A DNA stretch of 64,000 nucleotides, taken from the NCBI GenBank assembly GCA_046735335.1, contig JBKPTE010000046.1:32080-96079 (forward strand), read 5' to 3'. Position numbers and translations under genes: made by a program. Below are positions 8,906 to 51,456 of the stretch, one piece after another (the stretch's first letter is position 1; every line of letters starts with the position of its first letter). Source of the DNA: Acidobacteriota bacterium. GTDB lineage: Bacteria; Acidobacteriota; Vicinamibacteria; Vicinamibacterales; 2-12-FULL-66-21. Below the pieces are notes generated by a model. The model searched no databases, was not told the DNA's origin, and saw nothing but the letters and a program-made list of their open reading frames with translations.

Positions 8906-8946
8906 GGTTGGAGGTTGGTTGTTGGAGGTTGGTTGTTGGATGTTGG
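8906..8946. repeat. tandem 14-nt repeat GGAGGTTGGTTGTT x2.6
   Basis: Identical copies at 8910..8923 and 8924..8937, then GGATGTTGG. Lies in the divergent mfd / PEP-CTERM spacer. No inverted partner seen nearby. Confidence 0.85.
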
Positions 8947-20504: not shown

Positions 20505-20682
20505 GGTTCACAAGGTTCACGGGGTTCACAGGGTTCAGGGCTGGGTTCTCAGAGTTCCTGGTTCTCAGGTTCTTTGGTTCGCAGGTTCTCGGTTCGCAGC
20601 CCACGAACCCTGAAGAACCGATGAACCGCTGCGAACCCATGAACCCAGCCCTGAACCGCGTGAACGCCGTGAACCCCGAACC
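20505..20682. repeat. tandem-unit inverted repeat filling the parB-selD spacer (GGTTC x10 then GAACC x8)
   Basis: GGTTC at 20505, 20514, 20523, 20532, 20544, 20560, 20568, 20576, 20584, 20591. Centre GGTTCG-cagccca-CGAACC at 20591..20609. GAACC at 20605, 20615, 20623, 20633, 20641, 20653, 20671, 20678. A 17-nt exact complement pair: 20532..20548 with 20641..20657. Confidence 0.9.
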
Positions 20683-26195: not shown

Positions 26196-26354
26196 GGTTC
26201 TCGGGTTCTCTCGGGTTCTCAGGTTCTCAGGTTCTCGGGTTCTCAGGTTCTCGGGTTCTCAGGTTTCTCGGGTTCTCGGGTTCTCAGGTTCGAGAGGATC
26301 CCCGAACCCCCGAACGTGAGAACCTGAACCTGAGAACCTCAGAACCTTGGAACC
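26196..26354. repeat. tandem-unit inverted repeat filling the jag-mnmE spacer (GGTTCTCR x11-12 then GAGAACC-type x6)
   Basis: GGTTC at 26196, 26204, 26214, 26222, 26230, 26238, 26246, 26254, 26271, 26279, 26287 (GGTTTC at 26262), mostly on an 8-nt period. Centre GGTTCG-agaggatccc-CGAACC at 26287..26308. GAACC at 26304, 26320, 26326, 26334, 26342, 26350. Confidence 0.95.
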
Positions 26355-35035: not shown

Positions 35036-35036
<1 letters not shown>

Positions 35037-35116
35037 TGAATTGGTGAACTCGTGAATCGGTGAATCGAAATTCACCAACTCAATTCACCAACTCACCAAT
35101 TCACCAACCCACCAAT
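35036..35116. repeat. tandem-unit inverted repeat filling the gyrB-gyrA spacer (GTGAAYNN x4 then YYCACCAA x5-6)
   Basis: GTGAA at 35036, 35044, 35052, 35060 (8-nt period). Centre GGTGAAT-CGAA-ATTCACC at 35059..35076. YYCACCAA at 35071, 35084, 35092, 35100, 35108. Ends 5 nt before the gyrA ATG. Confidence 0.9.
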
Positions 35117-35121
35117 TACAG

Positions 35122-39878: not shown

Positions 39879-39968
39879 TAGCGGGTGCGACGTGCCTCGT
39901 GCGGGTGCGTCGAGCGGCGTGCGGCGTGCGGGTGCGTGGCGCGGGTGCATTGGCGCGGTGTGTGAGAA
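39879..39968. repeat. GC-rich array of GCGGGTGCG-type units upstream of uvrD
   Basis: GCGGGTGCG at 39881, 39901, 39928; GCGGGTGCa at 39941; GCGCGGTGTGTG at 39954. Confidence 0.75.
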
Positions 39969-39974
39969 GGAGCA

Positions 39975-40400
39975 CTAGGCAGCGAATCGAAATAGGAAGA
40001 CGAACAAGAGGGACGCAGTCGCTTCCATGCTGGCAAGCACCTGCATCTTCTGGCGCCGCATCCCATAGAGCAGCTTCTGCAGCCGTTCGATCTGATCCTG
40101 GCGCGGCAAGGCCTGAACTGCTGTACATAGACAGAGCCGAACGGCGATTTCGAGCTGTGTATCGAGCTCGCACGACGAGCCGATTGCCGTGTTGATGAAC
40201 CGCAGCGTCCACTTAGGGGCCTTAATCGGCTGCCCTTCGGCGACATTCGAGAGAACGGATACGGCGGCTCTTCGCATTTGCGAGACCAGACCGTCGCGCT
40301 CCTCGTTTGGGAATTCGGCGGTCAACCGCTATGTCGACTCGACGACATCCATGCCCACTTACCCCGCCACGAGTTCTCGAAAACCTCGGTTTTCGCGCAT
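39975..40400 (-). pseudogene. four-helix-bundle protein gene (23S rRNA IVS / Avd-like family) inactivated by two nonsense codons
   Basis: AGGAGG lies 6 nt upstream of ATG 40400. Translation reads [16 protein letters not shown](40361..40359)[12 protein letters not shown](40331..40329)[32 protein letters not shown]... The stops fall where family members have Q and Y (F.dL.vWqkA..L...iYkLt..FP.eE). The track only shows the TTG-started remainder, 39975..40325. Confidence 0.65.
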
Positions 40401-47346: not shown

Positions 47347-47354
47347 CGGTGGCC

Positions 47355-47384
47355 AATGTACTACTACAGTAGAACAATTGTCAA
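47355..47384 (-). promoter_or_regulatory. candidate GntR-gene promoter TTGACA-N18-TACATT with embedded 20-bp imperfect palindrome (putative operator)
   Basis: The minus strand reads TTGACAattgttctactgtagtagTACATTggccaccgATG. The palindrome TGTACTACTA/CAGTAGAACA (47357..47376) has 8 of 10 positions symmetric. The -10 ends only 8 nt from the ATG, implying a (near-)leaderless mRNA. Confidence 0.4.
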
Positions 47385-47386
47385 TC

Positions 47387-47431
47387 GGGTCAGAGCTGAA
47401 GGAATGCTCTGACCCGCACGGGGGTCAGAGC
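47387..47431. repeat. 10-bp perfect hairpin plus third copy of the arm (X-X'-X)
   Basis: GGGTCAGAGC 47387..47396, GCTCTGACCC 47406..47415, GGGTCAGAGC 47422..47431. Lies in the GntR / OMP divergent spacer, 40 nt before the OMP GTG. Confidence 0.8.
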
Positions 47432-47471
47432 GCTTCAGTATGATGGGACCGGTCTCCTGCTGAGGTGCAAC

Positions 47472-48140
47472 GTGAAAGAAGCTCTTCTCGCTGCCGCTGT
47501 ATTGCTCGCCGCCACGCGGGCCGTCGCACAAGAATCGGCGGGGCCTTACCTGGTTGGTTCGGGGGGCGGCGTATTCGGGGACGCGCACACTACAGGCTCG
47601 CTGTCGGTAGGCTTCGGATATCTGACGCCGAGACGCGTCGGCCTGGAAGTGGACCTCGCGTGGTCGCCATCGGTGCTCGAGCAGCCGGACGTGCGGATCG
47701 CGACGACGCAGCCGATCTTCAGCGATATTGCCATCTTCCCTCCGTTCGAGCTTCGGGTGCGCTCCCGCCTTCTCACCCTTCAAACGAACGTCATTGGTGT
47801 TCTGCCCGGGTCCGGCTCGCGGCTGCGCGCCTTCGTTGAAGCCGGCGGCGGCATCGCCGATCTCCAGCGCAGGACGCACTACAAGGCGTCCATTCCTGTG
47901 CTGCCTCCGCTCGACGACATCTTTTCGCGTCCAGGCCTGCCCACCGTTACGTTCACCACCATCGATCGCGACTTCACATCGACCGACACGTCGCTCGTGC
48001 TCGGCGCGGGAGGCGGTTTCGAATACGGCGTCGGCGAGCACATGAGCGCCGGAACACACGTCCGCTACCAGCACCTGTTCACGAATGGCGAGGCCCTGGA
48101 CATGGCGCGCCTCGAGGGACGCGTGAGCTGGAAGTGGTGA
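47472..48140 (+). CDS. outer-membrane beta-barrel protein (OmpW/porin-like small barrel)
   Basis: GTG start. Signal peptide MKEALLAAAVLLAATRAVAQ, alternating beta-strand pattern, C-terminal ...EGRVSWKW ending in an aromatic residue. Confidence 0.6.
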   Translation: MKEALLAAAVLLAATRAVAQESAGPYLVGSGGGVFGDAHTTGSLSVGFGYLTPRRVGLEVDLAWSPSVLEQPDVRIATTQPIFSDIAIFPPFELRVRSRLLTLQTNVIGVLPGSGSRLRAFVEAGGGIADLQRRTHYKASIPVLPPLDDIFSRPGLPTVTFTTIDRDFTSTDTSLVLGAGGGFEYGVGEHMSAGTHVRYQHLFTNGEALDMARLEGRVSWKW

Positions 48141-48146
48141 CGCCGC

Positions 48147-49991
48147 TTACTCGACGGTGACGCTCTTCGCGAGGTTGCGCGGCTGATCGACGTCGCAGCC
48201 GCGCCTCACGGCGATGTGATACGCGAGCAGCTGCAGCGGCACGACCATCAGGACCGGCATCAGAAGGGGCTGCGCGGCGGGAACGGTGATCAGGAAATCC
48301 TGCGACGGGTCGAGGAGTTGACCGATGCCGTCGTTCCCTTCCGTCGTGAGCGCGATCACGGAACCGCCGCGCGCCTTCGCCTCCTGGATGTTGCCCATCA
48401 TCTTCTCGAAGACGTGATCGTGCGGCGCGATCGTGACGATGGGCATCTGCTCGTCGATGAGCGCGATCGGTCCGTGCTTCATCTCCCCCGCGGGATAGCC
48501 TTCCGCGTGAATGTACGAAATCTCCTTCAGCTTGAGCGCTCCTTCGAGCGCGATTGGATAATTGATGCCGCGCCCGAGGTAGAGGAAGTCGCTTCGCTGA
48601 TAGAAGCGCCGGGCGATTTCCTCCGTCAGCGGCTCGCACTTCAGCGTCTGCTCGAGCAGCAGCGGAAGCTGCGTCAGCGCGTCGAGGTGCGGCCGCGCAT
48701 CCTCGGGCGCCAGCACGCCGCGGATCTGGCCCAAGTAGATCGCGAGCAGGTGCAGCGCGACGAGCTGCGACGTGAACGCTTTCGTCGAGGCGACGCCGAT
48801 CTCAGGGCCTGCGTGCGTGTAGACGGTGCCGTCGCTCTCGCGCGTCGCCATGCTGCCGACGACGTTGCAGATGGCGATGCTGTGCGCCCCCTTCTTCTTC
48901 GCCTCCCGAAGCGCGGCGAGGGTGTCCGCCGTTTCCCCTGACTGGGTGATGACGACGGCAAGCGTGTTCTTCGGCACGATCGGGTCGCGGTAGCGATACT
49001 CGGAACCGTAGTCGACGTCGACCGGCACCCGCGCCAGCGATTCGAACAAGAACTTGCCGACGAGGCCGGCGTGCCACGACGTGCCGCACGCGAGGATGAT
49101 TACGCGCTCGGTCGCGCGCAGGACGTCGTCGGGGATCTGGATCTCCTGCAGGAACACGCGTCCGCGCTCGACCGATGCGCGCCCGAGCACCGTCTCCCTC
49201 ACCGCCCAGGGCTGCTCGAACACCTCCTTGAGCATGAAGTGCTTGTATCCGGCCTTCTCCGCCATGACCGGATCCCACGACACGCGCGTGCTCTTCTTCG
49301 AGACGCCGCGTCCGGAATAGTCGGTGAATTCCACGCCCGACGGCGTGATAACCGCCATCTCCTCGTCGCCCAGAAACACGACGTCTCTCGTGTGGGCGAG
49401 GATCGCCGGTATGTCGGATGCGACGAAGAACTCCCGATCGCCGAGGCCGACGACGATGGGCGGCCCGTTGCGGACGGTCACGATCTTGCGCGGATCGTCG
49501 GCGGAGATCAGGACGAGCGCGAACAGGCCGCGCATGTACAGCAGCGCACGCCTGACCGCGTTCTCGAGACCGTCGTCCTTCATCTCGCGTTCGACGAGAT
49601 GCGCGACGATCTCCGTATCGGTTTCCGTCACGAACACGTGGCCTTCCGACTGGAGCTGGCGCTTCAGATCGAGATAGTTCTCGATGATCCCGTTGTGGAC
49701 GACGACGATGCGGCCGGTGCAGTCGCGGTGAGGATGCGCGTTCTCTTCGGTGGGACGGCCGTGCGTGGCCCAGCGCGTGTGGCCGATCCCGTACTCGCCT
49801 TCGAGGGGATTGACGGCAATCGCTTCCTCGAGCCGCGCGAGCTTGCCCGCGCTGCGGCGCAGCTCGATCGCGCCGTCGCGCACGACGGCGACGCCCGCCG
49901 AGTCGTAGCCGCGGTACTCGAGCCGCCGCAGCCCGTCGATGAGGATCGGCAGGACCTGCTTCTGCCCGATGTAACCGATGATGCCGCACAT
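48147..49991 (-). CDS. glmS: glutamine--fructose-6-phosphate aminotransferase
   Basis: From ATG 49991: MCGIIGYIG (N-terminal Cys nucleophile), two SIS domains, C-terminal ...NLAKSVTVE. The track ORF is over-extended to 50222. Confidence 0.97.
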
Positions 49992-50010
49992 ATCGCTGAT
50001 GGTTGTCAAA

Positions 50011-50087
50011 GGCGAATGACGAACGACGAACGACGAATTTCGAGCTTCATCATTCGTCTTTCGCCGTTCGTCTTCCGTCGTTGAGTC
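50011..50087. repeat. tandem-unit inverted repeat at the glmU-glmS junction (7-nt register, GACGAAY x4 then TTCGTCN-type x6)
   Basis: Units start at 50011, 50018, 50025, 50032 (GGCGAAT GACGAAC GACGAAC GACGAAT), at 50039 (TTCGAGC), then at 50046, 50053, 50060, 50067, 50074, 50081 (TTCATCA TTCGTCT TTCGCCG TTCGTCT TCCGTCG TTGAGTC). Centre GACGAAT/ATTCGTC at 50032..50058. The right arm lies inside the last codons of glmU. Confidence 0.9.
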
Positions 50088-51456
50088 GCTTCTTCGCGTC
50101 CGCCCAGCCTTCTTTGTTGATCTGCTTCCCGCGCGCGATCCCGAGCGCGCCGGCCGGGACGTCGTCGGTGATCGACGATCCGGCGGCCACGTACGCGCCG
50201 CGCCCGACGCGCACCGGCGCAATGAGCTGCGTGTCGCTGCCGATGAACGCCTCGTCCTCGATGACGGTCGGGCTCTTCACGCGCCCGTCGTAGTTGCACG
50301 TAATCGTTCCGGCGCCGATGTTGACCTTCTCGCCGATCGTGGAATCCCCGAGGTAGGAAAGATGGCTGGCCTTCGAACCCTTTCCAAGCGTCGTCTTCTT
50401 CAACTCGACGAAGTTGCCGATCTTCGCGTGCTCTCCGACGTCGGAGTTCGGCCGCAGGCGCGCAAACGGCCCGACTTCCGCGCCGGCCCGGATGCGTGAT
50501 TGCTCGATGACGCAGAAGTTCTGAACGACCGCGCCGTCTTCGACGATGGCGTCCACGAGGCGTACGCAGGCCTGGATCTCGCAGCCGGAACCGATCGTCG
50601 TCTTTCCTTCGAGGTACACGTTTGGATGGAGCACGGTATCGGGGCCGACGGAGACGTCGGGGCCGACGAACGTCGACGCGGGATCGACGATCGTGACGCC
50701 CGCGGCCATCAGCTCCTCTACGCGTGCGGTTTTCAGGATGGCGTTCACGTCCGCGAGCTCCCTTCGACTGTTCACGCCAATGATTTCTCGTGCGTCCGCG
50801 GCCGTCACGGTCTCCACGCCGCGGCCGCGCGAACGGTAAATCCGCACGAGGTCGGGCAGGTAGTACTCCCCCTGCGCGTTGCCCGACCCAATCGACGCAA
50901 GCGCATCGAACAGCGGCGCGAGATCGAACGCGTAGACGCCGCTGTTGATCTCGTCGATGCGGCGCTCCTCCGGCGTTGCATCCCGATCTTCGACGATTGC
51001 CGCAATCGCCTCATCCCGTCGGACAATCCGGCCGTAGCCGGAGGGATCGGGCACGCGCGCCGTCAGCACGGTCGCGGCGGCCTGCGTCTCGACGTGTCGA
51101 TCGAGCAGCCGCCGCACCGTCGCGAGGCGCAGCAACGGCACGTCCCCCGACAACAGCAACACCGTACCCTTGCCCTCGGGGAGGTACGGACGCGCCTGCA
51201 GGAGCGCGTGACCGGTGCCGAGCTGAGGCTCCTGCAATGCAAAGCGCAGGCCCGGCCGAGCTCGCTGCGACGATTCGACGAGGGCCGCACCGTGTCCGAC
51301 AATCACCGTCGTCGTGGCGGGTTGCAGCGCCGCGGCGAGACGGAGCACGTGTTCGATGAGGGGCAGGCCGGCCGCCCGATGGAGGACTTTGGGCTGCGCG
51401 GATTTCATGCGCGTCCCCTTTCCCGCCGCGAGGACGACGACATGAAGCGGCGGCAT
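50050..51456 (-). CDS. glmU: bifunctional UDP-N-acetylglucosamine pyrophosphorylase / glucosamine-1-phosphate N-acetyltransferase
   Basis: [13 protein letters not shown], a left-handed beta-helix hexapeptide region, and a C-terminal tail ...[14 protein letters not shown] encoded by the repeat arm. Confidence 0.95.

Follow-up and report, generated by a model that had tools for sequence, protein, structure and literature searches.

Results

The glmU-glmS junction is occupied by two inverted heptamer arrays

The window (the whole stretch of DNA analysed here, 64,000 nt) belongs to a Vicinamibacterales MAG of 5.41 Mb, 66.5% GC and 160 contigs, and the relatives used for comparison likewise carry the label Vicinamibacterales. 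Within it, glmU and glmS adjoin one another on the reverse strand and their junction holds an imperfect hairpin of 81 nt (window 50005-50085), in which one arm is GTCAAA plus four GRCGAAY units and, beyond a spacer of 13 nt, the other has four inverted units ending in a degenerate terminus (Table 1). The initial annotation had divided this junction into eleven heptamers, and an exact read confirmed these units at every 7 nt from 50011 to 50087. The single 7-nt register claimed for them holds in the units as cut, but not as additional evidence: a register shared by both arms carries no extra weight because it follows in part from cutting the second arm as TTCGTCN instead of RTTCGTC, and would be expected by chance in 1 case in 7. 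The real anatomy of the junction is two inverted arrays with outward GTCAAY termini.

Table 1. Features of the glmU-glmS junction (window coordinates).
Feature	Position	Strand	Sequence or product	Basis or remark
glmS	48147..49991	-	614 aa, N-terminal Met-Cys	Same protein on three other metagenome contigs
Relic of ancestral glmU end and glmS ribosome-binding region (putative)	49992..50004	-	mRNA AACCAUCAGCGAU	Alignment with G001 and element-bearing relatives
Outer terminus of glmS-proximal arm	50005..50010	+	GTCAAA (UUUGAC in mRNA)	55/83 family arms start GTCAAY in register
Four units of glmS-proximal arm	50011..50038	+	GGCGAAT GACGAAC GACGAAC GACGAAT	Non-coding 3' arm of glmUS mRNA
Spacer (loop)	50039..50051	.	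13 nt, holds two bases of glmU stop	Inverted-repeat finding and folding
glmU	50050..51456	-	468 aa, conserved body to about residue 457	Homology
Coding arm	50052..50085	-	mRNA CUCAAC GACGGAA GACGAAC GGCGAAA GACGAAU	Encodes GlmU L458-E468

TRF picked up a 7-nt period across 50013-50037 and a 14-nt period across 50053-50082, and a repeat finder returned an inverted repeat with arms of 33 nt each (50006-50038 and 50052-50084), 82% complementary and 13 nt apart. The hairpin that had been proposed folded in the mRNA sense at -48.6 kcal/mol, with a z-score of about -3.3 (-3.25 to -3.4) and 1 of 200 shuffles folding as well. The glmU TGA (the complement of 50050-50052) was located at the top of the stem and the loop, in keeping with the original placement of the stop codon, and arises at a GAAT-GA unit junction. 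The last 11 codons of glmU thus fall within one arm of the hairpin, while the non-coding arm reads AUUCGUC GUUCGUC GUUCGUC AUUCGCC in the mRNA sense. The CTCAAC at the outer end of the coding arm (mRNA strand, 50085-50080) is a degenerate GTCAAC terminus; in relative L232, whose GlmU is 90% identical, the coding arm still reads GTC AAT GAC GAA (V N D E). The glmS start at 49991 (MCGIIGY) lies 19 nt past the last full unit and 13 nt past the GTCAAA terminus, and the intervening relic matches AAGGAUCAGCGCUGAU in the sister genome G001, with element-bearing relatives retaining ...ATCAGCTGATATG. The loop sequence is unique to the locus.

The absence of a glmS ribozyme, noted at the outset, was borne out by an Rfam search that included RF00234, in which the junction returned only chance-level miRNA and snoRNA matches (E >= 0.14). 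A scan of the junction found no promoter-like site and no intrinsic terminator. A sigma-70 promoter built on the TTGACA at the end of the element was rejected, as the hexamer lies 12 nt from the glmS ATG, the promoter scan was negative and half of such termini face gene 3' ends. An assembly artefact was likewise rejected, since three other metagenome assemblies show exactly the same junction. The corresponding contigs are 99.85-99.98% identical to the window and therefore carry no information on variation or constraint.

Relatives without the repeat lack the GlmU tail

The initial annotation had suggested that the glmU 3' end was extended by the repeat or had the repeat imposed on it. Comparison of GlmU C-termini supported this: the 468-aa form occurs only in a clade of at least 90% identity, its tails are translations of the repeat units, and the tail is absent in relatives without the repeat. 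Alignments with 36 relatives lose homology beyond residue ~457 of 468, and those with solved GlmU structures beyond ~454, four residues short of the end of the E. coli protein. All GlmU proteins of 97-98% identity have 468 aa, with tails reading NDGKRTAKDK or NDERRTAKDE, and the 90% relative ends in VNDEGRTTKDE. Relatives below 90% identity are 455-470 aa long with no repeat-coded tail; an 81% relative, of the G001 type, reaches 483 aa via an internal insert and again has no repeat-coded tail. A tail conserved in relatives devoid of the repeat, which would have spoken against the suggestion, was looked for, and the outcome favoured the suggestion.

The sister genome G001 provides an empty site. 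Its GlmU ends ...GWVERKKKDQR, there is 1 nt between the TGA and the glmS ATG, and no repeat is present. At the DNA level AAGAAG is followed directly by AAGGATCAGCGCTGATATG in G001, as against AAGAAG-CGA-(CTCAAC...TTTGAC)-AACCATCAGCGATATG in the window. The cleanest joints are those of L232, which reads AAGAAG-CGC, then GTCAAT with four units, TGA and about fifteen inverted units closing with ATTGAC, and then AAGTATCAGTTGATATG. The former stop (TGAtATG) is still found downstream in relatives, with one base lost in the window.

Comparison of the filled sites with the G001 empty site showed inverted termini and no visible target-site duplication. A search of the genome for a Y1/RAYT transposase was negative (PF01797 unmatched, versus matches in 6 of 14 control genomes), which ruled out RAYT/IS200 mobilisation. 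With no target duplication, no Y1 transposase and no observed movement, the term 'insertion' rests on one empty site together with the outgroup tails; a deletion on the G001 branch would be the less parsimonious reading. We infer that the insertion took place after the G001 lineage had split off and before the split from the lineage with 90% identical GlmU.

The glmS leader has lost its Shine-Dalgarno sequence

The glmU stop and the glmS start are now 58 nt apart, the AAGGA Shine-Dalgarno sequence has been displaced and the stop-start coupling is gone. Complementarity to the anti-Shine-Dalgarno sequence within the 20 nt upstream of glmS was the weakest among 107 distinct relatives (+0.7 versus a median of -6.0 kcal/mol), and the next-weakest glmS leaders are also array-filled junctions. 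All element-bearing lineages are without a glmS Shine-Dalgarno sequence, each by a different change, the old AAGGA having become AAGTA, AAGCA or AACCA. Shine-Dalgarno use is weak genome-wide by crude start calls, which weakens the case for the loss at glmS as exceptional and implies that it may be tolerated rather than compensated. The structure, or the U-rich arm, could have taken over a role in glmS translation.

The hairpin is not maintained in all close strains

All element-bearing lineages share a coding arm of one length. Its divergence was 8% against 10% at third codon positions at 97% identity, and 17% against 31% at 90%. Protein-level selection on the tail was rejected, since the strains differ there by non-synonymous changes (R to K, E to K and G to E) and the divergence runs at roughly the third-position rate.

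The non-coding arm varies, with four units in the window and about fifteen in L232, and the intergenic region measures 58, 52 or 149 nt in relatives (149 nt being that of L232). In L234-237 it carries three substitutions, none of them compensated. In L233, whose GlmU is 97% identical, the non-coding arm lies in the opposite orientation (1444-1497), so both arrays are direct and the hairpin cannot form; the inversion resembles a template switch within a quasi-palindrome. Fold z-scores were about -3.3 in the genome's own copy, -0.6 in L234, -1.3 in L235, +2.0 in L233 and -5.0 in L232. The hairpin is thus strong in its own genome and stronger in L232, and is not maintained in all close strains. 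The initial annotation had raised the question whether the hairpin might control glmS; its decay or loss in strains with 97% identical GlmU weighs against this, and argues against a selected glmS regulator.

Slippage was documented in another lineage, where two contigs of 98% identity differ at the glmU-glmS junction by exactly one 7-nt unit. In other genera the same junction carries unrelated arrays (CATCGAR, GACGACT, CGACCAA and a GGGCTTG hairpin), some of which supply the glmU stop. As a separate observation, at three junctions of other Vicinamibacterales (L050, L124 and L131) GACGACT-type arrays extend from inside the last glmU codons to the glmS ATG with the TGA or TAA inside a unit, so that the glmU stop has been captured by heptamer arrays more than once.

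The junction copy belongs to a dispersed GACGAAY family

A genome-wide search with GACGAACGACGAA (one mismatch or fewer) returned 189 matches, compared with 4 for the reversed control. An in-register scan for three or more units defined 55 family loci, of which, by our own crude GC3-based gene calls, 39 are fully intergenic, 10 extend over a gene 3' end, 5 over a called 5' end and 1 lies inside a gene. By the same calls, 21 of 55 termini are no more than 10 nt away from a stop codon, fewer loci than expected occupy divergent intergenic regions (4 of 53), and arrays adjoin start codons as well as stop codons. Where GTCAAY opens an arm it does so exactly in register, and this terminus faces the neighbouring gene.

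Twelve loci are two-armed. In all of them the GACGAAY arm comes first on either strand, and the median fold z-score is about -9, the glmU-glmS copy being the weakest fold among them. Their loops are unrelated, which does not fit a classical MITE spread from one master. The remaining loci (about 43 of 55) have one arm only and show no structure beyond expectation (median z -0.3). Window 50005-50085 is most likely a gene-less two-armed copy of the form 5'-GTCAAY(GACGAAY)n - unique loop - (RTTCGTC)nRTTGAC-3'.

Within the order the family is patchy, with matches in 41 of 121 genomes; G025, from another family, has 303. Orthologous spacers of G000 and G001 gave one array kept, one arm gained or lost, and one post-tRNA site with different families. 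At this last site (G000 C19:21536-21687 and G001 L214:1483-1584), one genome has a hairpin of the AATTGGTG family and the other a GTCAAT-GACGAAY array.

Gene ends are also affected elsewhere. At least 7 genes of the genome end inside GACGAAY arrays at a GAATGA stop, one of them with the tail QRRTTNGERRMANDD, so glmU is not a special case. In T-type units TGA recurs in a different frame every 7 nt, so that three units close all three frames, and the polarity of the two-armed copies puts the stop-bearing arm first from either side.

GACGAAY is one family among many. TRF applied to the whole genome found 652 period-7 and 465 period-8 arrays; 56% of the period-7 arrays are intergenic, compared with 9.8% of the genome, and intergenic arrays of periods 7, 8 and their multiples occupy about 5% of intergenic DNA. 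Among the intergenic units, 73% of those of 7 nt and 94% of those of 8 nt contain a SAAY core (C/G-A-A-C/T), where 15-22% would be expected. In the survey of this core, further arrays of the window were seen at 8906-8946, 20505-20678, 26196-26347 and 35036-35117. The published units GGGAATC, GGGGAYT (other strand) and TAACTGA follow a similar xAAY+3 pattern.

PF05635 genes lie between inverted arrays

All eight matches to the four-helix-bundle family PF05635 in the genome lie between inverted tandem arrays. By comparison, 66 genes out of 4119 are flanked on either side by 7/8-nt arrays, with an inverted match in 7 of these. One PF05635 gene (121 aa; C146:1298-2008) is flanked by GACGAAY arrays, the opposed arms being 520-650 nt apart. 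The left arm of this copy consists of five copies of a 28-nt higher-order unit, each opening with GTCAAA, and the encoded protein ends within the array with the tail NSERNDER. Across the eight genes, the arms belong to the families AACCTCC (83 arrays in the genome), AATTCACC (47), AACGACG (41), ACGCCGC (34), AACCCTAG (30), AACCCCG (16) and AATCCCT, and the arm of the eighth gene is a 28-nt unit with GTCAATGCCGG. The PF05635 arm families are the abundant gene-less families of the genome.

Two of these loci are of note in themselves. At C110:1-1160, about twenty copies of the 28-nt GTGTCAATGCCGGCTGGGCGCTGCGCTT stand on one side of a PF05635 gene and inverted units containing CCGGCATTGAC on the other. 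Within the window, 39975-40400 (C46:72141-72434) holds a PF05635 relic with an internal TAG, one of the eight, which adjoins GC-rich 7/13/20-nt arrays (39881-39958).

In other genera, period-7 arrays were found on both sides of 23 of 24 evaluable PF05635 loci and were usually reverse complements of one another; in GRCGAAT-rich G025 a PF05635 gene lies between (GAATGGC)4 and (CCATTCG)10. When 17 proteins were aligned, those with similar arms proved more alike. Relative to the C146 protein, identity was 71% for C110, 29-33% for G025 and 11-27% for the rest, and two further pairs combine similar PF05635 proteins with similar arms. This shows that a PF05635 gene and its arms travel together. Separately, a gene upstream of a four-helix-bundle cassette in G025 (L269:600-724; C87) ends in a GGCGAAT array, with the tail ...EWRMANGEWGSDERGSDERG...

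In the library searched, no paper linked PF05635 with dispersed heptamer arrays or dealt with repeats of Vicinamibacterales. Recent work still describes PF05635 as functionally uncharacterised and places it as a relative of Avd, a DGR protein (PMC10053308; bioRxiv 10.1101/2024.02.27.582315).

Discussion

Relation to known repeat systems

Heptamer arrays with the units GGGAATC (Xanthomonas) and GGGGAYT (Nostoc) have been described, with 70-75 convergent inverted pairs per Xanthomonas genome, about 90% of arrays intergenic and no function known (Rehm et al. 2015, PMC4692102). The present family resembles them in having 7-nt units in tandem at many loci, mostly intergenic and near stop codons, in convergent stem-loop pairs, in proximity to or overlap with the upstream stop and in length variation among close relatives. 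It differs in its GTCAAY outer terminus, its acidobacterial host and its cognate four-helix-bundle gene copy. Additionally, GACGAAC and GACGAAT have no run of G, so the G-quadruplex capability of the G-rich Rehm-type units is absent here.

A second precedent is the intervening sequence (IVS) of the Coxiella burnetii 23S rRNA (Warrier et al. 2016, PMC4990558). It bears an S23p/PF05635 ORF, its terminal stem spans 28 bp, its GACAGAT heptamers are variable, and RNase III excises it. Both elements form a long stem from terminal inverted repeats bearing strain-variable tandem heptamers, and the IVS has been described as selfish; the C146 copy of GACGAAY, furthermore, bears the PF05635 gene in its loop. 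The glmU-glmS copy, in contrast, has no ORF in its 13-nt loop, and it is found between glmU and glmS, in an mRNA operon junction and partly in coding sequence, instead of a 23S rRNA helix. The glmU-glmS hairpin thus looks like a gene-less derivative of an IVS-like cassette.

REP/REPIN elements with GTAG/CGTC-tagged REPs and RAYT genes (PMC3733652) are likewise short dispersed intergenic palindromes near gene ends, with many gene-less copies and one repeat-flanked gene. The arms here are, however, tandem arrays with no fixed palindrome, the terminus is GTCAAY with no GTAG/CGTC tag, the genome has no Y1 transposase and, unlike RAYT, the flanked gene encodes a four-helix-bundle protein without known enzymatic activity. 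TAACTGA heptamer direct repeats of Beggiatoaceae, Cyanobacteria and Bacteroidetes (MacGregor 2015, PMC4679880) also lie a few nucleotides upstream of starts, in spacers without a canonical ribosome-binding site, as at glmS; those repeats, however, are almost all direct and share one unit across phyla, whereas here each genome has many unit families, and inverted pairs are common.

Origin and fate of the glmU-glmS hairpin

The hairpin is probably a gene-less heptamer array of an IVS-like family that was inserted into the last codons of glmU, is selfish or neutral and is now decaying. A copy would have entered among AAG lysine codons, four codons before the glmU end, exchanging the last residues (KDQR in the sister genome G001) for 11 repeat-encoded residues and supplying a new TGA, a stop created at any point where GA comes after GACGAAT. 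The old stop and the glmS Shine-Dalgarno and stop-start overlap would have been pushed downstream to decay there. Since then, the non-coding arm has changed by gain and loss of units, point decay and inversion, with the length of the coding arm kept. Such an element, behaving as selfish or neutral DNA, would be tolerated because the GlmU tail is unconstrained and because the first arm met by a ribosome carries stops. The glmUS mRNA is predicted still to fold a stem of ~29 bp; ribosomes translating glmU would have to melt this stem, RNase III could cleave it, and any influence on glmS would be a by-product.

In enterobacteria, RNase E processing takes place at the glmU stop and GlmZ controls glmS, and in Firmicutes glmS is governed by a ribozyme. 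The hairpin sits exactly where these bacteria control glmS, and the stem is stable, the glmU stop lies in the loop so that translation of glmU would open the stem, glmS has no Shine-Dalgarno sequence and the genome encodes RNase III. Each of these points would suit a locus-specific regulator of glmS, be it an mRNA processing site or a translational gate. We nevertheless regard such a regulator as very unlikely: the hairpin is absent from the 1-nt junction of G001, it has decayed or been lost with no compensatory changes in strains at 97% GlmU identity (where L233 and L234, as natural variants, point toward no dependence on the stem), the same element stands next to unrelated genes at 54 other loci, and neither an Rfam match nor a promoter or terminator signal was found. 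It is unlikely, too, that the array arose in place via replication slippage and fold-back copying of local sequence. Changes of unit number by slippage are documented, L233 indicates that local inversion of an arm is possible, the loops differ between copies, and at another locus G000 has an inverted arm that is missing from G001. Against this, the G001 empty site contains no GACGAAY-like seed and misses both arms together, and the junction copy has the GTCAAY termini and units common to dozens of loci.

The evidence from the other loci bears on a further alternative, in which the whole family is functional in the manner of REPs, stop-proximal arrays shielding upstream mRNA from 3' exonucleases or slowing terminating ribosomes, and the junction copy is kept for that reason. 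Work by Liang, Rudd and Deutscher in 2015 reportedly found that REPs within 15 nt of a stop codon lower upstream expression in E. coli. The clustering of termini within 10 nt of stop codons and the scarcity of loci in divergent intergenic regions would fit, and Xanthomonas arrays are equally stop-codon-proximal (PMC4692102). The prevalence of single arms devoid of excess structure, however, together with the arrays that adjoin start codons, the turnover of copies between sister genomes and the decay of the glmU-glmS copy at about the neutral rate, makes such a function very unlikely. Insertion of a selfish or neutral IVS-like copy accounts best for the locus.

The PF05635 genes raise the tentative possibility that they are the gene-bearing masters of the heptamer and octamer families, in which case the glmU-glmS hairpin would be a non-autonomous copy with its master at C146:1298-2008. 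This would parallel the way RAYT genes relate to REPINs, except that a putative non-enzymatic ring protein would recognise its own unit. In its favour are the inverted arrays around all eight genes, the abundance of their arm families, the flanking arrays at 23 of 24 loci in other genera, the G025 gene, the greater likeness of proteins with similar arms and the widely shared SAAY core. The chief competing view has PF05635 genes simply settling in the loops of pre-existing hairpins.

Both the heptamer repeats of bacteria (Xanthomonas, cyanobacteria and Beggiatoa) and the 23S rRNA IVS proteins have been unexplained for decades. The glmU-glmS locus offers a dated natural history of one gene-less copy, from empty site, through takeover of an essential gene's 3' end that brought in a new tail and stop codon, to loss of the ribosome-binding site and then slippage, inversion and decay, all within 3-10% protein divergence. 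This history argues that such hairpins are selfish or neutral insertions, not tuned regulators, and that they remodel gene ends and operon junctions. As each abundant repeat family in the genome has one copy with a four-helix-bundle gene, the link between protein and repeat is testable. For annotation, C-terminal tails of this kind and leaders without a Shine-Dalgarno sequence in these genomes are to be read as repeat-derived.

Further length variation within the window

Two other differences were observed among the near-identical contigs. L229 (99.98% identical) is without exactly 141 nt (47 codons) of a gene for a beta-barrel outer-membrane protein (OMP; window 47517-47657), an in-frame length polymorphism. 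Most of the differences in L230 (3 substitutions and 2 single-base insertions) cluster at window 47354-47432, in a GGGTCAGAGC / GCTCTGACCC hairpin upstream of the OMP gene.
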